Assembly: GCA_964603595.1 (NCBI GenBank)
Contig: CAZRVN010000004.1
Span: 148,678-212,677 of the forward strand
Length of the DNA stretch: 64,000 nt
Direction of reading: 5' to 3'
Origin: an uncultured Actinomycetota bacterium
GTDB taxonomy: Bacteria > Actinomycetota > Humimicrobiia > Humimicrobiales > Humimicrobiaceae
Under the pieces are notes generated by a model. The model was given only the letters and a program-made list of their open reading frames with translations, made no database searches and had not been told where the DNA came from. The position numbers were made by a program, and so were the translations under genes. Position 1 is the stretch's first letter, and every line of letters starts with the position of its first letter. Of the stretch, positions 6,360-39,347 are shown piece by piece.

Positions 6360-6746
6360 TTAGTAAAAATCCTTAAAATCAACCCACTTGCTTTTTTTAT
6401 CAAGTTTTCTTATTTTTATTTCTTTTAATATTAAATTTTCTATTTCATTTTCATTTATTGGAGAGCCTATATCTTTCCCTAAAATATAGACATTTATCTT
6501 TTTTCTTTTAGCTCTACTTACAATATCTGATAAATTAGAAATTTTTCTGCTTATAATAACCATATCAATTCTTTCATATTCCAAAATAAAATTTACAGCA
6601 AAACTGCTATTTAAATTTATAAATTTAAATTTTTTGAATAAATTTTGAACTCTCTTAAATGTTTTAGTATCCCTATCTGCTAATATGATATTAAAAGAAT
6701 TAATATATTTACTTATTTTATCATTTATATTAGTATATATATCCAA
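6360..6746 (-). CDS. Hypothetical protein in a very AT-rich patch
   Basis: 128-aa ORF with no recognisable motifs. The local composition is visibly more AT-rich than the flanking housekeeping genes. Confidence 0.35.
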   Translation of the reverse strand: MDIYTNINDKISKYINSFNIILADRDTKTFKRVQNLFKKFKFINLNSSFAVNFILEYERIDMVIISRKISNLSDIVSRAKRKKINVYILGKDIGSPINENEIENLILKEIKIRKLDKKSKWVDFKDFY

Positions 6747-6892
6747 TAGTGCTTTTGTATATATGTATAATTTAAAGAAATTTGTTTTAGTAGGATAAAA
6801 TATATTATTAACTATGTCAATACTATTTCTATACCTATTATATACTATAATATTATATAAATATATTATTTAATATTTAATCACATTTAAAT

Positions 6893-7258
6893 TTGAATTT
6901 AAATGTACGATTAAAATACCTACAGGAAATGAGCCTTATGGAACAAATAATTGGAATTACAAATGCCAGAAACAATATCAAAGAAATTGTAGATGCTATA
7001 TCTGATAAAAATGAAACTTATATCGTCACAAGAGACTGTATCCCCGAAGCTGTAATAATCTCATACAAGAAATACATGGAAAATAAGAAGCTTCTTGAAA
7101 AGATTGTAGAACTTCAATATGAAAAATCAATGAAAAAATCACAGAGCCAATTTAAAGAATGGCTACAGCAAAAAGGATTTAGTATTAATAATCTATCCGA
7201 AGAAGAAATTGATGAGATGATTAAAAACTTACATATTAATAGTATTAACAAACATTAA
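6893..7258 (+). CDS. Phd/YefM-family type II antitoxin-like protein. The true start is probably the ATG at 6938.
   Basis: The core IIGITNARNNIKEIVDAISDKNETYIVTRDCIPEAVIISYKKYMENKKLLE matches the Phd/YefM N-terminal fold. An AGGAAA RBS precedes the ATG at 6938. No toxin ORF follows it. Confidence 0.6.
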   Translation: MNLNVRLKYLQEMSLMEQIIGITNARNNIKEIVDAISDKNETYIVTRDCIPEAVIISYKKYMENKKLLEKIVELQYEKSMKKSQSQFKEWLQQKGFSINNLSEEEIDEMIKNLHINSINKH

Positions 7259-7498: not shown

Positions 7499-8530
7499 TT
7501 ATTTAAAAAGCTTTGATATTTCGTAAAGCTCTTTATCCAGAGGTTTTTCTTCCTTTATGGCTTTCTCCAGTGAAACAGACTTTATTACTCCATTTTCCAT
7601 AACTACCATCTCTCCGAATCTACCCTCATGGACAAGATCAACTGCCTTTACTCCCAATCTTGTAGCAACTATCCTATCAAAAGCAGTCGGCCTTCCGCCT
7701 CTCTGCAAGTGTCCCAGTATGGTTACCCTGGTACTATAGCCAGTCCTTTTCTCAATCTCCCTGGCAATAACATTACCCACACCGCCAAGTCTTACATGGC
7801 CAAAACTGTCAATCTCCTCTGAAGATGCTACCTGGCCTTCAACCTCAGCCGGCTTTGCTCCTTCCGCTACTGCAATTATACTGAAGTCCTTACCTCTCTC
7901 TCTTCTGCTCTCAATAGTATTCACTATGTCATCATAATCGAAAGGAACCTCCGGAATTAATATAACATCCGCACCCCCGGCAATACCTCCGTTTAGCGCC
8001 AGGCAGCCGGAATCTCTTCCCATAACTTCTACTATCATTATCCTGTGATGCGAAGATGCAGTGGTGTGAAGCTTGTCAATGCATCCGGTAACAACTTCCA
8101 GCGCCGTATCATAACCTATGGAATAATCAGAATGTGCAATGTCATTATCAATAGTCTGGGGTATCCCTACTCCCTTTATTCCATACTGAGTTAAACGTGT
8201 TATAACTCCATTGGTATCATCCCCGCCTATTGTTATTACCGCATCAAGCTCAAGCTTTTTTATATTTTCTTTAACCTTTTCAACTCCATTTTCTACTTTA
8301 AATGGGTTAGTCCTGGATGTTCCCAGTATAGTGCCGCCTTCAGAAAGAATTCCTGAAACTGATTCTCTACACAACTCTTCCGCACTTCCTTTAATAAGAC
8401 CTTCCCATCCGTTTTTAATTCCTATTATCTTATATCCATACTGTGATGCCCTCATAAAAATAGCCCTTATGGCTGCGTTTATTGCTGATGAATCTCCCCC
8501 ACCGGTTAGAATCCCAATATTTTTTACCAT
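7499..8530 (-). CDS. pfkA: 6-phosphofructokinase, with its start placed at the internal Met at 8530. A GGDD variant in the active site may mean it is PPi-dependent or atypical.
   Basis: The product reads MVKNIGILTGGGDSSAINAAIRA...TIGGDDTNG...GIPQTIDND...MGRDSGCLAL...GHLQRGG, the PFK_A family catalytic motifs. A GGAAAGGGA RBS precedes the Met at 8530. The track ORF extends to 8599. Confidence 0.85.
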   Translation of the reverse strand: MVKNIGILTGGGDSSAINAAIRAIFMRASQYGYKIIGIKNGWEGLIKGSAEELCRESVSGILSEGGTILGTSRTNPFKVENGVEKVKENIKKLELDAVITIGGDDTNGVITRLTQYGIKGVGIPQTIDNDIAHSDYSIGYDTALEVVTGCIDKLHTTASSHHRIMIVEVMGRDSGCLALNGGIAGGADVILIPEVPFDYDDIVNTIESRRERGKDFSIIAVAEGAKPAEVEGQVASSEEIDSFGHVRLGGVGNVIAREIEKRTGYSTRVTILGHLQRGGRPTAFDRIVATRLGVKAVDLVHEGRFGEMVVMENGVIKSVSLEKAIKEEKPLDKELYEISKLFK

Positions 8531-8699
8531 TTTAAATCCCTTTCCACCATTAATTAATTTTAAATAACTTTTTATATATAAAAAATCTATCTTTATCAAT
8601 TAAAAACAATCAAGCCAGCCTCACTCAGCATCCTGCAAACCGAACATAACTCTAGTTACAAAGATATCAAAAAACCACATAAAAACAATAAAAAATAAA

Positions 8700-9662
8700 T
8701 ACCTATCAAATTTAAAATTAGGCAATTATCCCTTGACATCACGTATATAATCTGGTATGATTATAGCATGATGAAAGATAAATTTACAATAAAAGACTTC
8801 AACAAAATGTATCCAGACGACAATGCTTGTCTTGATGAAATCTTTAACAATCGTTATGGTCATTTAAAATCATGTCCTTCCTGTAAAAAGAAAACTAATT
8901 TCTATAGAATAGAAAACCGTAAGGTCTATTCCTGTCAATACTGCGGTTATCAGATTAGCCCATTAGCCGATACCATATTTCATAAATCCTCTACTAGTTT
9001 AAAAGATTGGTTCTATTCTATCTATCTATTCTCTGTATCTAAAAATGGTGTTTCTGCTAAAGAGTTGGAACGTCAACTCGGAGTTACCTATAAATGTGCT
9101 TGGAGAATAGCCAAACAGATAAGACAACTGTTCAAACAGAATAAGGATTTATTGTCAGACATCATTGAGATTGACGAGACATATATCGGTGGTAAGCATA
9201 AAGGCAAAAGAGGTCGTGGCTCTGAAAATAAGACTCCGGTTGTGGGTTTAGCTCAACGAAAAGGGAACCTTAAAGCCAAAGTAGTTTCTAATACCAATTC
9301 CTATACCGTCCAGAATATAATGAGAGATAGTGTCCAACTTGGCTCAAATATTATGACTGATGAATATAGAAGCTATAATGTAGTAAGAAAATTAGGCTTC
9401 AATCATCAAACAGTCAGTCATTTCAAAGAACAATGGGCTAACGGTATAGCACACACCAACACAATCGAGGGCTTCTGGTCTCAACTAAAAAGGTCAATCA
9501 ATGGTACTTATCACTGTGTTTCCCCGAAGTATCTTCAGTCTTATGTTGACGAGTTTGTCTATCGCTATAATAATCGTCTTTCCCCTTTCCCGATTTTTCT
9601 AAGTCTGGTCTTATCGGCTGGGAAGCACGTTTAATTATCAATTTAAATTGCTTTTTATCTAC
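8700..9662 (+). mobile_element. IS1595-family insertion sequence with approximate boundaries. The terminal inverted repeats were not resolved.
   Basis: It is a single-transposase IS and is AT-rich. A TTGACA-N17-TATAAT promoter lies just upstream of the transposase ATG. Palindromic AATTTAAATT motifs sit near both flanks. I could not assign the ends confidently. Confidence 0.4.
8768..9634 (+). CDS. IS1595-family transposase, with an N-terminal zinc ribbon and a DDE domain
   Basis: CPSCKKK...CQYCG zinc-ribbon motifs are present. The IEIDETYIGGKHKGKRGRG...TDEYRSYN...GIAHTNTIEGFWSQLKR stretch matches the DDE_Tnp_IS1595 pattern. Confidence 0.8.
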   Translation: MMKDKFTIKDFNKMYPDDNACLDEIFNNRYGHLKSCPSCKKKTNFYRIENRKVYSCQYCGYQISPLADTIFHKSSTSLKDWFYSIYLFSVSKNGVSAKELERQLGVTYKCAWRIAKQIRQLFKQNKDLLSDIIEIDETYIGGKHKGKRGRGSENKTPVVGLAQRKGNLKAKVVSNTNSYTVQNIMRDSVQLGSNIMTDEYRSYNVVRKLGFNHQTVSHFKEQWANGIAHTNTIEGFWSQLKRSINGTYHCVSPKYLQSYVDEFVYRYNNRLSPFPIFLSLVLSAGKHV

Positions 9663-30177: not shown

Positions 30178-31248
30178 CTAAAAATCCACTTCAACTCCCG
30201 CATCCCTTAATTCATCTACCTGGCTTTCATCTGCAACAGGATTGCCTTTAATATAAAGCTTCTGTAAATTCGGAAGTTCCTTTAAAGCTGAGATGTCTGT
30301 TATTTCATTATCTTCCAGCCAGAGTGATTCAAGGCTTTTAATCTTTGAAAGTGATGAAATATCAGATATCTTATTCTTTGAAAGAGCCAGCTGCTTTAGA
30401 TTTTCCAACTCTGCCAGCGGTGATATATCTTCTATCTCACACTCGCTGAGACTTACAATCTCTAATTTTTCCATTTCACCCAGCGCTGATATATCTGATA
30501 ACGGGTTATTGCCCAGCATAATTAATACAAGATTAGATAAGCTTGATAACGGGCTGATATCTGATACATTATTGTTAGCCAGGGAAAGGTTCTTTAGATT
30601 TTTTAATTCAGATATAGCGCCAACATCTGCTATCTGGTTCCTGTTTAAACCCAGAACCTCTAAATTAGTAAGTTCTAATAAAGAGGGGATATCTACAATC
30701 AGATTATTATCCAGAACAGCCACCTTTAATTTATCAAGACCTATTAATGGAGAGATGTCTAATATTTCATTTTTGCCCAGACTGACACTTTCTAAATTTA
30801 CTAAATCCTCAAGCGGTCCTATATCTGTTATTTTATTATCATTCAGCCCGAGATTTGCAAGACTGTTAATATTAGAAAGAGGTGATATGTTACTGATTAG
30901 ATTACCATTTAGATTTAATATACGTAGTTTTGTAAGTTTTGACAGGGGTGATATATCAGTTATTTCATTATTGTTTAAACTTAGATTTTCTAAGTTTACA
31001 GCATCTTCAACGCCTGAGATAGTTTTTATCTCCATATTGTCTGCAAATAATTTATCCATTGACTCCATATCTTCAGCGCTTATTTCTTCACCGGTTATGC
31101 CCAGCTCTTCCTTCTCAGCTTTTAAAAGGTTCGGGTCGCTTGCTCTCTTAAATAAACTGCATCCCGGAATACTAACTGATATAATTAACGCTAAAATAAA
31201 TACCGGTGCTGCATAAATAAATTTTTTCATATATATCTTATGTTCCAT
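30178..31248 (-). CDS. Leucine-rich-repeat (internalin-like, 22-residue LRR) lipoprotein
   Basis: About 12 tandem LRRs of the form NLxxLxLxxNxIxDISPLxxLxxL are present. The N-terminus MEHKIYMKKFIYAAPVFILALIISVSIPGC is a signal peptide with a lipobox Cys. The track ORF start at 31341 would read through a terminator hairpin and is rejected. Confidence 0.75.
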   Translation of the reverse strand: MEHKIYMKKFIYAAPVFILALIISVSIPGCSLFKRASDPNLLKAEKEELGITGEEISAEDMESMDKLFADNMEIKTISGVEDAVNLENLSLNNNEITDISPLSKLTKLRILNLNGNLISNISPLSNINSLANLGLNDNKITDIGPLEDLVNLESVSLGKNEILDISPLIGLDKLKVAVLDNNLIVDIPSLLELTNLEVLGLNRNQIADVGAISELKNLKNLSLANNNVSDISPLSSLSNLVLIMLGNNPLSDISALGEMEKLEIVSLSECEIEDISPLAELENLKQLALSKNKISDISSLSKIKSLESLWLEDNEITDISALKELPNLQKLYIKGNPVADESQVDELRDAGVEVDF

Positions 31249-31429
31249 TTGAAATTTAAATAAAAAAAACCGACTGCATTTAGTCGGTTTCGCTACTTGC
31301 TCCTCTTTTCTCAAAGCGTCCAAATTAGAGAAAAGTATCAAAGCACCTAAATTAAAATAAATATTTTAATATCTAAATTATTATATTTTTATAACGGGAT
31401 TATATTACATTTTTTACTAAAATGTCAAA
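31231..31429 (-). promoter_or_regulatory. Promoter plus structured 5' leader (copy 2 of the duplicated element) upstream of the LRR lipoprotein gene
   Basis: The minus strand carries TTGACA (31429-31424) and a TATAAT-like -10 (31404-31399). Hairpin B is next. Hairpin A (31270-31287) comes next, followed by eight U residues that end about 14-30 nt before the start codon. Confidence 0.55.
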
Positions 31430-31548: not shown

Positions 31549-32181
31549 ATGAAAATAAAAAAATTCTATAAAAAACATAAAATAAAAATTATAAGATACA
31601 CCGGAATAGCCCTGATAATAATGGGGCTTTCGGTTATAATATGGCCCTTCTACACCAGCTTTATCATGGCAAGAAGAGAACTGGATATACTCTCCTCATG
31701 GGAAGAAGAAACGGAATTAACCGGCGGTGAAAAAGGTGATGGAATAAATGGAAAGCTTGAAAAAGAAAATATTCCCGTTGATACAGAGAAAAAAGTCCCT
31801 TTCAGGATTACAATCCCCGATATTGAGCTGGACTGGATTGTCAATAAAGGAACCGACTACGCAACTTTAAGAAAAGGACCGGGCTATTACATATCCTCTG
31901 CTCTCCCGGGCGAAGAAGGCACCTGCCTTGTGGCCGGTCACAGGACTACCTACGGTGCTCCCTTTAATAGACTGGGTGAGCTTGAAGAAGGTGACGAAAT
32001 AATAATAGAGACAGAAGGTAACGAAAAATTCACCTATATAGTTACGGGTATGGAAGCTGTACTCCCCACTGACATGTCTGTCCTTGAAAATACTGATTAC
32101 CCTTCCCTGGTGCTGTCAACCTGTACACCAAAATATTATGCCACGAGAAGACTTATAATATATGCAAGGATTGCAGAATAA
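31549..32181 (+). CDS. Sortase (copy 3)
   Basis: It has a transmembrane anchor and the motifs AGHRTTYGAPFNRLGEL and LVLSTCTP, followed by the conserved Arg. The product is 210 aa. Confidence 0.8.
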   Translation: MKIKKFYKKHKIKIIRYTGIALIIMGLSVIIWPFYTSFIMARRELDILSSWEEETELTGGEKGDGINGKLEKENIPVDTEKKVPFRITIPDIELDWIVNKGTDYATLRKGPGYYISSALPGEEGTCLVAGHRTTYGAPFNRLGELEEGDEIIIETEGNEKFTYIVTGMEAVLPTDMSVLENTDYPSLVLSTCTPKYYATRRLIIYARIAE

Positions 32182-33765: not shown

Positions 33766-34569
33766 TTAAGATTCGTAATCAAACCACTTACTGTAAATTT
33801 CATCATAGGTTCCATCTTCCTTAATCTCTTCAAGGATGCTGTCGACTTCCTCTTTTAATGTGCTCCCTTCACTAAAGACAATTCCAAATTCTTTGCTTGA
33901 TTTTACTACTTCCAGCACACTATAAATCCCGGTATTTCCAGTGATAAGATTAACCCCCACGGGAAGGGAAAGAAACATTCCGCCAATATCCTTATTCTTC
34001 AGGGCATCAATCATAATAACTACATCATTATATCTTTCAACTTCAAAATTAAGCAGATAATCCTCATCAATGTATTTTTCTTCGCTACTCAATATCCCTA
34101 AGGGTCCCCCCTCCATATTTTCCTTAATCTTGATATCGGCCTCATCTAAGACAATTAACATATACTCCATAGTAAAATAAGGAATTGAAAAATCAACTAT
34201 ATCGTCTTTATCAGGTAATATTGGAATAGCTGATATAACCATATCAAGTTTTATATCCCCGGGAATCTGGTAGCTGCTCTCCCAGTCTATTTGCACTATT
34301 TCTAAATCCTTCTCCATCCTGCTGGCAATTTCTGTTGCAATATCAATATCAAAACCCTCAACATTACCATCTTCCATAAACTCAAAAGCTGGATATGTAG
34401 GGTCGCAGCCCACCATAAGGTTTGACCCTATATTATTTATATCTCCGGCATTATCCCTGGTCCTGCAACCACCTGAATTCAGAAGCAAAAAAATAATTAT
34501 GCCGGCAATAATCACATATATAAAAAATAAAGAAGTATTCTTATTTTTTTGTATAAAATTTAAAAACAT
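33766..34569 (-). CDS. Family-3 periplasmic solute-binding lipoprotein (amino-acid type). It is orphaned, with no adjacent permease or ATPase.
   Basis: It has a signal peptide with an LLNSGGC lipobox and an SBP_bac_3-like fold pattern. Confidence 0.55.
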   Translation of the reverse strand: MFLNFIQKNKNTSLFFIYVIIAGIIIFLLLNSGGCRTRDNAGDINNIGSNLMVGCDPTYPAFEFMEDGNVEGFDIDIATEIASRMEKDLEIVQIDWESSYQIPGDIKLDMVISAIPILPDKDDIVDFSIPYFTMEYMLIVLDEADIKIKENMEGGPLGILSSEEKYIDEDYLLNFEVERYNDVVIMIDALKNKDIGGMFLSLPVGVNLITGNTGIYSVLEVVKSSKEFGIVFSEGSTLKEEVDSILEEIKEDGTYDEIYSKWFDYES

Positions 34570-35026
34570 TTAAAAAATTTACTTTTCATTTAAGTTATAT
34601 GCTCATAATTAATTTACCATAGGTTAAATTTTATTAGAATTAAATTATTTTTCAAGCAATATTTTGGCTTTACCACGCCATAGTTTTAGAAGCATATAAA
34701 TGATAAATATATGATTTTAAAATATAAATATAAAACTCTATTAAATGATTATAAAAAACTCTAATTAATTCATGTATAAAAGTATTTTATATCCTACTCA
34801 TTATATGTTAAAATTAATAGTGTAGAGTACTAATATTATTTAATAATATCAGTATTTTTAATATTTTAAGTAAAAATAGATAGAGGAAGTGCTCAAATAC
34901 GGGTTCTAAATATAAGTTTACAGGTTGATTTGATTTTTACTTAAAAATAGTATAAAGTATTTCAAGTTTTATTTTGGAAATGTTTTGACGGACTGAAAAA
35001 ATTATTAAAAAGGTTGGTGAATAAAA

Positions 35027-35464
35027 ATGGCTAAGAGTGATGATGTCAAGAAAAAATCAGAAGAGATAGGAATAAATGGTCTCAACAGCATAAGCAATTT
35101 AGAAGCTGAAATAATGAAGATTATCTGGAAGAGCGGCAAAGTAACAGTAAGGGAAGTGCATGAGGACATGCTGAGAAAAGAAATTGAAAGTAAAGAGCAT
35201 GGTTTCATACCATATACCACTGTGATGTCAACAATGACTACCCTGGCTGAAAAAGGCCTTCTAAAGCAGAATAAGACTTCCAAAACATACCTGTATTCTG
35301 CTGCTGTTGACAAAAAGGAACTTTCAAAGAGAATAATAAAATCAGTTTCTGACAAATTGCTTGAGGATAGTACCAGAGGAATGGTCTCAAGATTTTTATC
35401 TGACAGCAAGAATATCTCAAAAGAAGGGATAAATAAGCTATTAAAAGAGATAGACAAGCACTAA
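35027..35464 (+). CDS. BlaI/MecI/CopY-family winged-helix transcriptional repressor
   Basis: LEAEIMKIIWKSGKVTVREVHEDM...TVMSTMTTLAEKGLL aligns with the BlaI N-terminal DNA-binding domain. It lies upstream of an M56 peptidase gene. Confidence 0.8.
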   Translation: MAKSDDVKKKSEEIGINGLNSISNLEAEIMKIIWKSGKVTVREVHEDMLRKEIESKEHGFIPYTTVMSTMTTLAEKGLLKQNKTSKTYLYSAAVDKKELSKRIIKSVSDKLLEDSTRGMVSRFLSDSKNISKEGINKLLKEIDKH

Positions 35465-35667
35465 AACTGATTACCTGTAATAAATATATTTTTACATTGC
35501 TAGTCCGGAAAGCTGGTTAGAGGAAAAATATAAGAAAATTTTAAAATTATTTTCGGCTGAGATTTATGTTAGTGTAATCATATTAAAAAAATTTTTCCCT
35601 CGTGTATTTGTCAGGATTAAATTATGCAATAGTATTTATATAATTAATACATAATACATATATCTTT

Positions 35668-36729
35668 ATGTTTTTTTTAGAAATATTAATAAATTACATT
35701 CTGCCGATTATCTATACAAGTGCTATAAGTCTTGTACTGGTACTATTATTCCTTTTTATCTTCAGGATTAAAGACTCAAATATAAGAATTTTATTTTTCT
35801 TTATACCGCTGATAAAGCCATTTATAGCAATTGCGGAAAAATTTGATACTAGCAAACAGCACTTTAACGTAAACACCACTATCGGAGCAATCAGGTTTCC
35901 CGACCCTGCCAATATCATTAAAAGTTTTGAAATTTTTGACAAAGGTCCCCTGGTCATTTCCGACATCAACTACCTGATTCTATTTCTTGTATCTATAATT
36001 ATAATCATGGTACTGGTGGCAAGATGGATTAACCTTCTTTTTTTCTACAGGAGACTGGCATATGAAGAAAGGGTCAGCCGTAAGGATGTGCCTGATCTCT
36101 ATAAAATTATGGACCGCTACACCAGTAAAATAAAATTAAATACACCTGCTGTAAGTCTTACCCACAGGGATTTCTTCTCACCTTTTGTCGCCGGCATTAA
36201 AAACTACACCATGGTCCTGTCGCCAACTCTAATAGAAAAGCTTGATTTAAACGAAAAAGAAACCCTGATCCAGCATGAACTTTCACATATAAAAAGAAAG
36301 GATAATTTTATAGGATGGATGGCTCTGATATTAAGAGACCTCTTTTTCTTTAACCCTGTTTCCTACATTGCTTACGGCCTGATAAGGGCTGAACAGGAAA
36401 AAGACAGCGATAAGCTCATGGTAAAATACTCCGGCAAGTCCAAAAAAGAGATATCCAGAAGCATCCTGGGAATTATCCTGAAGCTAAACTCAATCACAAC
36501 AAGAAGAATGAATCCGGATACTCCCTATACTTCTACCTTCTCCCCCTTCACTCTGCTCAACCACATAAAGATAAAAAACAGGATAAAATCCATTTCAAGA
36601 ACCGACCCGGGAAAAATTTACAGCCGCCTGCTTCCCAGGGTTTTAATGTATTTAATGTTCGCTCTCCTGTTACTGCTCCAGATTGTTTTTATTTTTAAAA
36701 TAGGTAACTGGTTTATTTTCCTTAGATAA
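35668..36729 (+). CDS. M56-family (BlaR1/MecR1-like) membrane metallopeptidase lacking the C-terminal penicillin-binding sensor domain
   Basis: It has multiple transmembrane segments and the M56 zinc motif LIQHELSHIKRKD. It is 353 aa, against about 585 aa for sensor-bearing BlaR1. Confidence 0.75.
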   Translation: MFFLEILINYILPIIYTSAISLVLVLLFLFIFRIKDSNIRILFFFIPLIKPFIAIAEKFDTSKQHFNVNTTIGAIRFPDPANIIKSFEIFDKGPLVISDINYLILFLVSIIIIMVLVARWINLLFFYRRLAYEERVSRKDVPDLYKIMDRYTSKIKLNTPAVSLTHRDFFSPFVAGIKNYTMVLSPTLIEKLDLNEKETLIQHELSHIKRKDNFIGWMALILRDLFFFNPVSYIAYGLIRAEQEKDSDKLMVKYSGKSKKEISRSILGIILKLNSITTRRMNPDTPYTSTFSPFTLLNHIKIKNRIKSISRTDPGKIYSRLLPRVLMYLMFALLLLLQIVFIFKIGNWFIFLR

Positions 36730-36903
36730 ATTTTAGAAATATAACATAACCTTCCTAAAATTTTGGATACCAGAAATTAATCTTTTTTTACCTGCCGCAT
36801 TACCATACCAGTTTGATATAACAGCTTTATAGTAGTAACATATATAACTATATAATAATTATATAGCTGTAACATAAAAATTACTTCAGGAAGGGAGTAA
36901 TAT

Positions 36904-37026
36904 TTGAAGTCCATCAACAAAACCAAAGACCTCTGGAATAATGACCTGAAGATGGAAGGGTTAAAAGGTTATATGAGCCCCATGTGCTGCTGGATATGGT
37001 GTTTCTGGTGGATTGACCACCCATGA
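36904..37026 (+). CDS. Putative RiPP precursor peptide, 40 aa, with a TTG start. It is not in the supplied ORF track.
   Basis: AGGAAGGGAG sits 6 nt upstream of TTG. The translation is (M)KSINKTKDLWNNDLKMEGLKGYMSPMCCWIWCFWWIDHP, with a Cys/Trp-dense C-terminal core. The stop lies 20 nt before the radical-SAM/SPASM gene. Confidence 0.5.
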   Translation: MKSINKTKDLWNNDLKMEGLKGYMSPMCCWIWCFWWIDHP

Positions 37027-37046
37027 TAGTGTAGATATTACTAATA

Positions 37047-38423
37047 ATGGAATTATTCCAGAGTAGTTACAACTACTCAAAAAAAATAAATTCAAAGTAT
37101 ACCCTGATAAATAATACCCTGACCGGTGCACTGGATATAATAGAAAATTATATCTGGCAACTGATAGAAAAGAAAAGTTTTGATAAAGTAGAATCCGGTA
37201 TTTTATCACGGCTTATGGATAGGGGGTATTTCTATACCGATTCAAAAAAAGAAGACCAGATATTTAAAGAGCTTTTTTCTAACTATACAAAAAAAATATT
37301 TTCAAAACCCGTTAGATTTGTATTCTGCCCATCTTTCCATTGCAACCTTGATTGTATTTACTGCTTCCAGAAAGACCTTCCCGGCAATCCAAATAAATTC
37401 ATGAGCAAAAAAGTACTTAATGACTCCATTAAAGCTGCCAGGAAAATATCAGAAAAGAAATCAGGCAATATTGACTCTATTGAACTTTTTGGAGGAGAGC
37501 CCCTTCTCCCAAAGAGTAAAAACTATGTAGAGAAAATTCTCAAATTTGCAGCAGAGGAAGATGCAACCATAACCATAGTTACAAATGGGGTACTGGTAAA
37601 AGATTTTCTGGACATACTTAAACCGGTAAAAAATAGAATCAACATGCTCCAGATAACCATTGACGGGCCACCTGAAATCCATGACAGCAGGAGAAAATTC
37701 CATTCCGGCAGAGGCAGTTTTGACAAAATAGAAGAGGGCATAGACCTCCTCTTAGAAAATAATATTAATACCCACATGAGGATAAATATTGACAATACCA
37801 ATATTGACTATCTACCGGAGCTTTACAAATATGTCAGTAAAAAAAACTGGCTTGGCCACCCTGATTTTAAAATATTACCTGCACTGGTTACGGACCACAG
37901 CACCCTTGATTATGACGATATCATAATACCCGAAGAGAAATTACTGGAAAAATTAATTATATTGTATGACAACCATCCGGAATTGGAAGACGTGCTTAGT
38001 TTTTATGCTTTCAAGCCCGTAAGGCATATACTGGAACTCTTAGAAGGATCGCCCAATGTTTCCCCAAAATTCTACAACTGCGAGAGCAATATACTGGAAA
38101 TGAATATTTTTGGCCCTGACGGATATATTTATGCCTGCGGGGAATCCATAGGCAAGCCCGAATATGCTATAGGAAGATTCAGCCCCGGACTTGAATTTTA
38201 CCCGGACAGAGAGAAACTATGGACCTCAAGAAACATAATGAGTATGAAAAAATGCAAAGAGTGTAAATTCGCTCCCCTCTGCGGCGGCGGCTGCGCCTTT
38301 TCCTCAATGCTTATATATGATAATAACAGCACCCCGGTATGTGAAAGATACCAGGAAGTACTTGATACATTCATTGAGCTAAGAGGAGAAAAGATATTTA
38401 AAAAATATATGGAAGACCGGTAA
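37047..38423 (+). CDS. Radical SAM enzyme with a C-terminal SPASM domain (peptide-modifying maturase type)
   Basis: The CNLDCIYC element gives the CxxxCxxC radical-SAM cluster motif. The C-terminus has seven Cys including CKECKFAPLCGGGC, which matches Cx2Cx5Cx3C. About 90 aa N-terminal to the core could be a precursor-recognition domain. Confidence 0.8.
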   Translation: MELFQSSYNYSKKINSKYTLINNTLTGALDIIENYIWQLIEKKSFDKVESGILSRLMDRGYFYTDSKKEDQIFKELFSNYTKKIFSKPVRFVFCPSFHCNLDCIYCFQKDLPGNPNKFMSKKVLNDSIKAARKISEKKSGNIDSIELFGGEPLLPKSKNYVEKILKFAAEEDATITIVTNGVLVKDFLDILKPVKNRINMLQITIDGPPEIHDSRRKFHSGRGSFDKIEEGIDLLLENNINTHMRINIDNTNIDYLPELYKYVSKKNWLGHPDFKILPALVTDHSTLDYDDIIIPEEKLLEKLIILYDNHPELEDVLSFYAFKPVRHILELLEGSPNVSPKFYNCESNILEMNIFGPDGYIYACGESIGKPEYAIGRFSPGLEFYPDREKLWTSRNIMSMKKCKECKFAPLCGGGCAFSSMLIYDNNSTPVCERYQEVLDTFIELRGEKIFKKYMEDR

Positions 38424-38432
38424 AGCCCTTTT

Positions 38433-39347
38433 TTAAAGCTGCATTTTTGCTGCTTTTAAAGTATTTTTAAGAAGCATCGCAATTGTCATCGGGCCAACTC
38501 CACCGGGAACAGGTGAAATATAGCCAGCTTTGGGCTCCACTTTTAGAAAATCCACATCTCCTATAAGAGTAGAACCCTTTTTCTCAAAGTCTTCCTTTCT
38601 CCATTCAAGAAGTTCCTTACTTGCTTTATCTTTTGTTATCCTGTTAATTCCCACATCTATAACCACTGCGCCTTCCTTAACCATATCTTCTTTAATTAAG
38701 TAAGGAACACCGGCAGCAACAATAAGGATATCAGCTCCTGAAGTACTGAACTTCAGGTCCCTGGTTTCAATATGACATATTGTAACAGTAGCCCATTCAT
38801 TCAAAAGGAGCAGCGATGTCGGTTTGCCCACTATTTCACTGTGCCCCACCATGGTAGCATTCTTTCCCTTTATGGTTATGTTTTCTCTCTTCAGCATTTC
38901 TATAATGCCGGATGGAGTAGCGGGAACCAGGCAATCCTGCTGCGCTATCAGTCTTCCCGTATTTATGGGATGAAATCCATCCACATCCTTTTCCGGGTAT
39001 ATAGCTTCCAGGACCTCTGCCTTATTTACCTGTGGCGGCAACGGAAGCTGGACAAGGATGCCATGGATATCATCCCTCTGGTTAAGCTTCTTGATTTCAT
39101 CCAGAATATCCCTGTTAGATATACTTTTATCCATCCTTATTGTCTCAGAATAGAATCCAACCTCATCACAGCCCTTCTTTTTATTTCTTATATACACTTC
39201 CGAAGCAGGGTTATCCCCTACCAGTATCACTGCCAGACCCGGTGCAACTCCCCTGGTTTTTTTTAGTTCTTTTACTTCTTCTGTTATTTCTTTTTTTATA
39301 TCCTGTGATATCTTCCTGCCGTCAATTAATTTAGCTATTTTAATCAC
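38433..39347 (-). CDS. folD: Bifunctional methylene-THF dehydrogenase / methenyl-THF cyclohydrolase
   Basis: 304 aa with GLAVILVGDNPAS, YIRNKKK and PGGVGPMTIAML motifs. Confidence 0.88.
   Translation of the reverse strand: MIKIAKLIDGRKISQDIKKEITEEVKELKKTRGVAPGLAVILVGDNPASEVYIRNKKKGCDEVGFYSETIRMDKSISNRDILDEIKKLNQRDDIHGILVQLPLPPQVNKAEVLEAIYPEKDVDGFHPINTGRLIAQQDCLVPATPSGIIEMLKRENITIKGKNATMVGHSEIVGKPTSLLLLNEWATVTICHIETRDLKFSTSGADILIVAAGVPYLIKEDMVKEGAVVIDVGINRITKDKASKELLEWRKEDFEKKGSTLIGDVDFLKVEPKAGYISPVPGGVGPMTIAMLLKNTLKAAKMQL

Follow-up and report, generated by a model that had tools for sequence, protein, structure and literature searches.

A probable new family of radical SAM/SPASM-modified peptides encoded together with a BlaI repressor and a sensorless BlaR1-like M56 protease

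Peptides modified by radical S-adenosylmethionine (SAM) enzymes are fruitful ground for finding new chemistry and antibiotics, darobactin being an example. Among peptides that are made on the ribosome and modified after translation (RiPPs), the described systems closest to the locus reported here are the thioether (ranthipeptide) maturases of the CteB/SCIFF type (PDB 5WGG/5WHY), in which an enzyme with a radical SAM core, a SPASM domain of seven cysteines and an N-terminal peptide-binding domain is encoded beside a Cys-rich precursor. On the regulatory side the nearest relatives are BlaI/BlaR1 and MecI/MecR1 (Staphylococcus aureus, Bacillus licheniformis), where the repressor gene lies 5' of the gene for an M56 membrane zinc protease, and the non-canonical BlaIR pairs, whose M56 protein has no transpeptidase domain. 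In the present work a stretch of 64,000 nucleotides from an uncultured Actinomycetota bacterium (contig CAZRVN010000004.1; the whole stretch is called the window below) was analysed, in which genes of both kinds form one cassette: a BlaI repressor, a sensorless BlaR1-like M56 protease, a 40-residue peptide and a radical SAM/SPASM enzyme. It is very likely that the cassette belongs to a known kind of system, the radical SAM/SPASM-modified ribosomal peptides, and that its novelty lies in the precursor family and in the conserved coupling to BlaI/BlaR-like proteins.

All cassette genes are co-oriented on the plus strand, and 20 nucleotides (nt) separate the stop codon of the peptide from the ATG of the radical SAM gene. 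The elements are as follows (RRE, RiPP recognition element; ORF, open reading frame).

35027-35464, plus strand: BlaI/MecI-family winged-helix repressor, 145 amino acids (PF03965, 3.6e-25)
35668-36729, plus strand: sensorless BlaR1-like M56 membrane zinc protease, 353 amino acids (PF05569, 2.2e-22)
36813-36841, plus strand: promoter-like site TTGATA-17-TAACAT before the peptide gene, a consensus match only
36889-36897, plus strand: Shine-Dalgarno motif GGAAGGGAG, 6 nt 5' of the TTG start, read from the sequence
36904-37026, plus strand: putative precursor peptide ORF with a TTG start, 40 amino acids, MKSINKTKDLWNNDLKMEGLKGYMSPMCCWIWCFWWIDHP
37047-38423, plus strand: putative radical SAM/SPASM peptide maturase with a predicted RRE-like N-terminal domain, 458 amino acids (PF04055, 3.8e-20; PF13353)

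An earlier reading of the same DNA, made from the letters alone and called here the sequence-only reading, had placed the same four genes with the same domains at these positions and had pointed to the strong ribosome-binding site of the small ORF. The present analysis agrees with it in each of these respects.

The enzyme of the cassette shares with CteB the radical SAM core, the seven-Cys SPASM domain and the Cys-rich gene at its side and, judging by its predicted fold, probably also the N-terminal peptide-binding domain. It differs in an identity of about 20%, in the score of the SCIFF maturase model TIGR03974 (101.9 bits versus a cut-off of 425) and in the precursor, which has another leader and a CCWxWC core; BlaI/M56 genes are not known from SCIFF clusters. 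The CX3CX2C motif (C99/C103/C106) is invariant in 24 homologues, and so are the seven SPASM cysteines (C345, C364, C403, C406, C412, C416, C432), with G359 in the CX13GX4C element; the domain is thus as complete as the sequence-only reading had described it. The Pfam SPASM model matches neither the enzyme nor its isolated C-terminal part. The best curated match, extending over the whole length of the protein (residues 6-449, 1.5e-54), is the CefB "Cys-every-fifth" maturase (NF038107), however with 185.5 bits against a cut-off of 600, and the cassette peptides differ in their cysteine spacing, CCxxxC, which is duplicated in some members. The other best models, Clo7bot, DynA, TIGR04463, geopeptide, PapB and ryptide, are all of peptide maturases and are likewise far under their cut-offs. 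Among solved structures, sequence profiles put CteB at the top (1.4e-26) and the anaerobic sulfatase-maturating enzyme (anSME) second. The nearest relatives are therefore enzymes that mature peptides, not those of sulfatase maturation or quinone biogenesis, which had been named beforehand as the point to be checked.

The AlphaFold2 model of the enzyme has a mean predicted local distance difference test (pLDDT) of 89, and ahead of the radical SAM barrel it holds strands 9-13, 18-23 and 28-33 followed by helices, a predicted beta3-alpha domain with a pLDDT of about 90. The top fold matches found by Foldseek were CteB (2.9e-19), anSME, TigE, ChlB and SuiB. The alignments to CteB, TigE and SuiB, which are RRE-bearing enzymes, were full-length (467-492 columns), whereas that to anSME, which is without an N-terminal domain of the peptide-binding type, was limited to the core (about 390 columns). 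Judged from this modelled fold, the N-terminal domain is likely to be an RRE.

The peptide MKSINKTKDLWNNDLKMEGLKGYMSPMCCWIWCFWWIDHP consists of a hydrophilic leader, a CCWxWC core (CCWIWC) and a variable aromatic tail, and the window has no second ORF of the CCW type. In order to compare it, DNA around homologues of the radical SAM enzyme was collected by exact-protein look-up and by a metagenome scan with an alignment of 24 sequences. All close loci which cover the region 5' of the radical SAM gene have an ORF of 37-42 codons directly before that gene, with a leader of the form M[KI]S[ILV]NKT..LW, a core CCW[x][WFY]C and then 2-9 mostly aromatic residues. Distant loci (radical SAM identity 30-39%, GC content 0.28-0.75) retain the same design, as is seen in the peptides MKSLNKKDELWASRGKIEKPKVEPLCCWVFCWFW (L056), MRSLNRDDMLWDAIEHAECLEDSTSCCFYYSYCWGW (L085) and MAALNPTGSLWTNNLQLGAAGLGPDGPGPACCWWMCNLCCWVFC (L036). 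In the last of these the core is duplicated; a duplicated core of the form CCWxxCxxCCWxxC was found in L032, L036, L037 and L039, and duplicated cores are common among RiPPs. In about 40 independent loci, whose GC content runs from 28% to 75%, the common pattern is S-[ILV]-N-x-T..LW for the leader and CC[WF]x[WFY]C for the core. An AAGGAGG or GGGAGG motif precedes the start codon in all related loci, and across loci the radical SAM gene begins 0-25 nt from the stop codon of the peptide.

Comparison of the codons in 24 close sequences showed that synonymous sites of the peptide gene are saturated (mean proportion of differences, pS, 0.72), the mean for replacement sites (pN) being 0.21; the median dN/dS of unsaturated pairs was 0.24, with leader and core alike. 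Since the ORF is present in every related locus with enough DNA and is under purifying selection, it can be regarded as a real gene and not as a chance ORF. It has been overlooked by annotation, as the sequence-only reading had noticed for the window: on the homologous public contigs examined the gene is uncalled, and a single 40-residue relative was found among 5.8 billion protein clusters searched. No Pfam or NCBIfam model matches the peptide, and the NCBIfam precursor models gave nothing even at E values up to 10. The open literature that was searched contains nothing linking BlaR1 or M56 to radical SAM peptides. As the peptide falls under no curated model, the radical SAM enzyme is assigned to none, and the literature searched is silent, the pair is considered a new family, in agreement with the suggestion that the class had not been described. 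As a separate observation, in L043:3593-5533 (75% GC) the sequence CCWNVCGSW stands in frame inside an N-terminal extension of the radical SAM ORF, a candidate precursor-enzyme fusion or a missing stop codon.

The association of the peptide with the remaining genes is not limited to the window. Among 28 close loci, with radical SAM identities of 52% or more, all that comprise enough DNA encode the M56 protease, the peptide and the radical SAM enzyme, and the 12 distant loci do likewise. Conservation was assessed by a tblastn survey and by all-against-all clustering of neighbouring ORFs in 33 loci, and the two methods agree. The families found in the neighbourhood were the radical SAM enzyme (31 loci of 33), M56 (29), BlaI (24, most of the others having no upstream DNA) and, as the next most frequent, FolD (9, all of them close relatives). 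Of the loci with enough upstream DNA, 23 of the 24 close ones and 10 of the 11 distant ones encode BlaI. In a search begun from M56, three homologues were chosen on long contigs, and all three have the order BlaI-M56-peptide-radical SAM enzyme. When the radical SAM proteins were arranged in a neighbour-joining tree, those linked to M56 all came together in a single clade, and the enzymes at 27-30% identity outside this clade have neither M56 nor a CCW-type peptide. It can be said that the radical SAM enzyme, M56 and usually BlaI are linked to the peptide clade-wide. Conservation of the small ORF beside homologous radical SAM genes, and co-occurrence of the BlaI/M56 pair with it, had been set out in advance by the sequence-only reading as tests of its proposal, and both were borne out. 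A protein identical to the radical SAM enzyme of the window is present on a metagenome contig of 757 kb, and a scan of a genome collection with the single radical SAM protein gave one archaeal locus (L001, 29% identity). The other neighbours of the cassette vary and comprise HD-GYP-like signalling proteins, EF-G, rubrerythrin, FtsH, an ammonium transporter and sugar enzymes.

The BlaI and M56 proteins have the features of the canonical pairs, namely the repressor fold, the M56 transmembrane and zinc-protease module with its HExxH motif, and the order of the genes. Unlike these, the cassette has no transpeptidase sensor, and its linked genes are the peptide and the radical SAM enzyme; a beta-lactamase or PBP2a gene was found neither among the window neighbours (pterin-binding, solute-binding protein (SBP), FolD, CdhD and acetyl-CoA synthase genes) nor as a conserved gene across the loci. 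The motif HELSH occupies M56 residues 203-207, and none of H203, E204, H207 and E244 varies among 19 cassette homologues. The profile of these 19 proteins aligns to residues 10-330 of the 602 of S. aureus BlaR1 (8EXP), ending where the sensor domain starts, and the protein itself ends at residue 353, past the last transmembrane helix, without the C-terminal extracellular penicillin-binding (transpeptidase) sensor, as had been read from the sequence. The 120 best database homologues are all 338-357 amino acids long, thus all without the sensor. BlaR1 was the sole significant fold match to the M56 model, which is of moderate quality (pLDDT 66). Hydropathy gives transmembrane segments at about 4-33, 37-59, 93-128 and 319-353; from these, a topology may be drawn with the N-terminus outside, an extracellular loop of about 40 residues with a conserved PDP motif, a cytoplasmic protease domain and a short conserved C-terminal tail that would be extracellular.

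A sensorless M56 beside BlaI, to which the sequence-only reading had drawn attention, turned out not to be rare but to be the commonest M56 architecture: in a 2026 survey only about 6% of M56 proteins carry the transpeptidase sensor and about 96% are near a BlaI (PMC13492132). Described examples of transpeptidase-less M56 with BlaI upstream are CenIR of Clostridioides difficile, BlaIR of Mycobacterium tuberculosis and M. abscessus, and PvmSR of Pseudomonas aeruginosa. The activating signal of such pairs is unknown (PMC13492132; for the Pseudomonas example, bioRxiv 10.64898/2026.08.03.742534). They differ from the cassette in that they regulate cell-envelope, energy-metabolism or virulence genes, and none has been reported beside a radical SAM/peptide pair.

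When BlaI of the window is aligned to the MecI/BlaI structures, its R122-F123 falls on the scissile bond of MecI (N101-F102). A reading of BlaI as a CopY-type copper repressor was rejected, as the score was 55 bits versus a cut-off of 122 and the C-terminal Cys motif is absent on reading the sequence. In at least 13 related loci an extended -10 element, TGNTATAAT, is conserved at the intergenic position upstream of the peptide, which suggests that the peptide gene may have a promoter of its own. Two further elements were noticed 5' of blaI: an AT-rich palindrome about 170-200 nt upstream (window about 34820-34845, CTAATATTATTTAATAATATCAG; TATTAATATTAAATATTAATA in the relatives L004, L013, L018, L028 and L030) and, in L019-L024, a separate conserved motif, TTTGTCAAA. 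Either could be a candidate operator. The three-copy repeat TAC-N18-TAC of the window was discarded as an operator, because it shows no conservation in L002, a locus of 79% identity, and is probably due to chance in AT-rich DNA.

Several loci depart from the common arrangement. L017 and L038 keep M56, the peptide and the radical SAM enzyme without an adjacent BlaI, and in L038 the radical SAM gene lies divergently on the other strand, the peptide gene having stayed 3' of M56. Two sister clusters, L040 (5546-6562 and 6636-7322) and L042 (1953-3185), encode peptides whose leader, S[VI]N..LW..REEY, is homologous and whose cores are CC repeats; there M56/BlaI is replaced by an M50-like membrane metalloprotease, with an ABC ATPase in addition in L040; L040 adjoins an IS66 transposase and a recombinase. 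In L085 a second BlaI/sensorless M56 pair without its own peptide or radical SAM gene lies just 3' of the cassette (6541-6933 and 8134-9171), and a second pair is arranged in the same way in L086. A gene of the GAF- or PAS-HD_5 (HD-GYP-like) type stands beside the cassette in at least seven loci, in three arrangements and with differing other neighbours, and none is present in the window. It is divergent and 5' of blaI in L019, L021/L092, L090 and L091, and 3' of the radical SAM gene in L017 (5760-6953) and L056 (3207-4712); the P0078 contig also has one. These positions hint at an accessory output or input of the cassette system. In one sublineage a Ste24-like M48 peptidase (Peptidase_M48_N and M48) lies directly 3' of the radical SAM gene (L019:4577-5797, L021/L092:4977-6203, L023:1592-2803 and the P0078 contig), and it could be an additional processing protease there. 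Some distant cassettes have a second radical SAM gene (L036:5396-7534, L037:4468-6405, L047:5409-7403, L056:4706-6022), of the B12-binding type in L047 and L056, which suggests possible extra tailoring steps in those lineages.

It is proposed, with reasonable probability, that the four genes form a self-contained RiPP cassette for a crosslinked peptide, in which M56 has the dual role of acting on the peptide and taking part in BlaI control. The parts of this proposal are of unequal strength: a precursor/maturase relation between the peptide and the radical SAM enzyme is highly probable, control of the cassette by BlaI is rather likely, and a direct action of M56 on the peptide is put forward tentatively. 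The 40-residue product of 36904-37026 would be the precursor, the conserved leader of which (S-I-N-K-T..LW) would be bound by the RRE-like N-terminal domain of the radical SAM/SPASM enzyme; the enzyme would then install at least one radical-mediated crosslink in the CCWxWC core. By analogy to relatives, the crosslinks are most likely Cys-derived thioethers, and C-C or C-S links of Trp may be the alternative. The sensorless M56 would be an obligate membrane partner, with its zinc site by homology in the cytoplasm, on the same side as the precursor and the enzyme, and it would act on the peptide by leader removal or by product binding. It would also cleave BlaI, as in BlaR1 systems, so that either the product of the cassette or a signal from the envelope would induce it. 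The product may serve as a signal or an antimicrobial, or it may be a peptide of the membrane or one resembling a cofactor; this role is inferred, as are the chemistry, the substrates of M56 and the operator sites.

Pheromone and RiPP systems with membrane metalloproteases offer a comparison. Eep/RseP-type M50 proteases process short hydrophobic peptides, and streptide is under Shp/Rgg control. The likeness lies in the combination, within one circuit, of a small hydrophobic peptide with a crosslinking enzyme of the radical SAM type and a zinc protease of the membrane, and the sister clusters have an M50-like protease as well. The difference is that the protease of the cassette is M56 and its regulator is BlaI, not Rgg.

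The strongest rival accepts the peptide and the radical SAM enzyme as a RiPP pair and takes BlaI/M56 as an ordinary non-canonical BlaIR pair, which senses an unrelated cue from the envelope or the environment and controls the adjacent operon; M56 would never touch the peptide, and leader removal and export would be left to housekeeping or distant genes. This explanation is judged somewhat unlikely, and it draws on several of the findings. Regulation is what the family canonically does, nearly every locus keeps BlaI (about 33 of the 35 that could be assessed), and the loci without it are only two, with BlaI possibly encoded elsewhere in those genomes. BlaI/sensorless M56 pairs are very common general regulators (PMC13492132), and together with the peptide-less pair of L085 (as well as that of L086) this means that M56 of the cassette is maybe purely regulatory; in the sublineage which has it, the Ste24-like M48 could be the real leader peptidase. 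On the other side, M56 seems to be tied to the peptide itself, because L017 and L038 keep it with the peptide and the radical SAM enzyme in the absence of an adjacent BlaI, because the peptide gene of L038 stays with M56 and not with the radical SAM gene, and because the sister clusters exchange M56/BlaI for an M50-like membrane metalloprotease, not for another regulator. The identities of M56 and of the radical SAM enzyme fall in step (80, 60, 50, 30 and 25%), as those of co-evolving partners would, and in the clustering of 33 loci no other protease was conserved around the peptide. The dual role of M56, peptide processing or sensing combined with BlaI cleavage, is favoured for these reasons, with purely regulatory action as a strong rival.

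Other observations weigh against the proposed cassette. The putative crosslinking chemistry is taken over from relatives. The RRE assignment is drawn solely from the predicted fold, and the PqqD model did not match the N-terminal 93 residues of the radical SAM enzyme. The residue pair at the scissile position of BlaI varies across the family, and a search for the BlaI operator by repeats and dyads, in the window and 16 loci, found no dyad common to the regions upstream of blaI and of the peptide. Neither an exporter nor an immunity gene is conserved across the 33 loci, which bears on the destination of the product; the sequence-only reading had already remarked that no dedicated exporter is adjacent.

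A further step within the proposed dual role is that the modified CCW peptide may itself be the cognate ligand of the sensorless M56. Processed, released and hydrophobic, it would be sensed by the short extracellular loop or tail or in the membrane, and BlaI cleavage and derepression of the cassette would follow; in some lineages the adjacent HD-GYP-type gene would also be derepressed. This is regarded as an unlikely extension.

An improbable explanation is that the modified peptide is trimmed, in the manner of pyrroloquinoline quinone (PQQ) or mycofactocin, to a redox- or metal-active cofactor tied here to the acetyl-CoA pathway. It would fit the lack of a conserved exporter or immunity gene and the position of the cassette in the window, between a pterin-binding methyltransferase-like gene and an SBP gene on the 5' side and folD, cdhD and the acetyl-CoA synthase gene (acsB) on the 3' side, all on the minus strand. 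The model of QhpD, the quinohemoprotein amine dehydrogenase maturase, also matches the radical SAM enzyme (1.1e-21), and QhpC, the substrate of QhpD, carries Cys thioethers and a Cys-Trp quinone. The sequence-only reading had likewise taken this placement as a hint of a redox or metal-linked role. However, the closest relatives alone (9 of the 33 loci) have FolD and carbon monoxide dehydrogenase/acetyl-CoA synthase genes as neighbours, and other members adjoin HD-GYP-like, EF-G, rubrerythrin, FtsH or sugar genes; the setting is therefore lineage-specific synteny without a functional signal, and the link to the acetyl-CoA pathway was rejected. Accessory tailoring genes of the PQQ/mycofactocin type are not conserved in the 33 loci, where conservation is limited to the radical SAM enzyme, M56 and BlaI, and the variable aromatic tail resembles a diversifying product rather than a fixed cofactor.

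It is most improbable that the ORF is a Cys/Trp-rich attenuation peptide tuning radical SAM expression to the charging of Trp- or Cys-tRNA, with the enzyme modifying another protein as anSME does: its richness in Trp and Cys codons, its end 20 nt before the radical SAM start and the rank of anSME as second-best solved relative are outweighed by the hydrophilic leader, conserved as protein across GC of 28-75% with saturated synonymous sites, by the lack of a plus-strand terminator or antiterminator in the 20-nt gap and of any Rfam match over window positions 34400-38600, by L038, where the ORF is not 5' of the radical SAM gene, and by the predicted N-terminal domain of the peptide-binding type, which anSME lacks.

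Two remarks concern matters outside the cassette. A leucine-rich-repeat protein (30178-31341, minus strand) and a sortase (31549-32181, plus strand) are encoded in the window just 5' of the acetyl-CoA-pathway block and are unrelated to the cassette. A role in anti-phage defence was also considered and rejected, as PADLOC gave only generic radical SAM similarity to pVip and nothing else supports it.

The distinct leader, the core dense in Cys and Trp and the absence of a curated model make the peptide and the radical SAM enzyme a defined candidate enzyme/substrate pair. In public assemblies the genes for such peptides nearly always go uncalled, and standard annotation is blind to the class. Most BlaR-like M56 proteases are without a beta-lactam sensor, and the signal which they sense is unknown (PMC13492132; bioRxiv 10.64898/2026.08.03.742534); the tie of one M56 clade, across phyla, to one small peptide and its putative maturase offers a concrete candidate substrate or ligand for these sensorless proteases. 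If the peptide were indeed the ligand of M56, the cassette would be a new peptide quorum-sensing or autoinduction circuit, and it would provide the first defined ligand class for a large group of BlaR-like proteases without a beta-lactam sensor.

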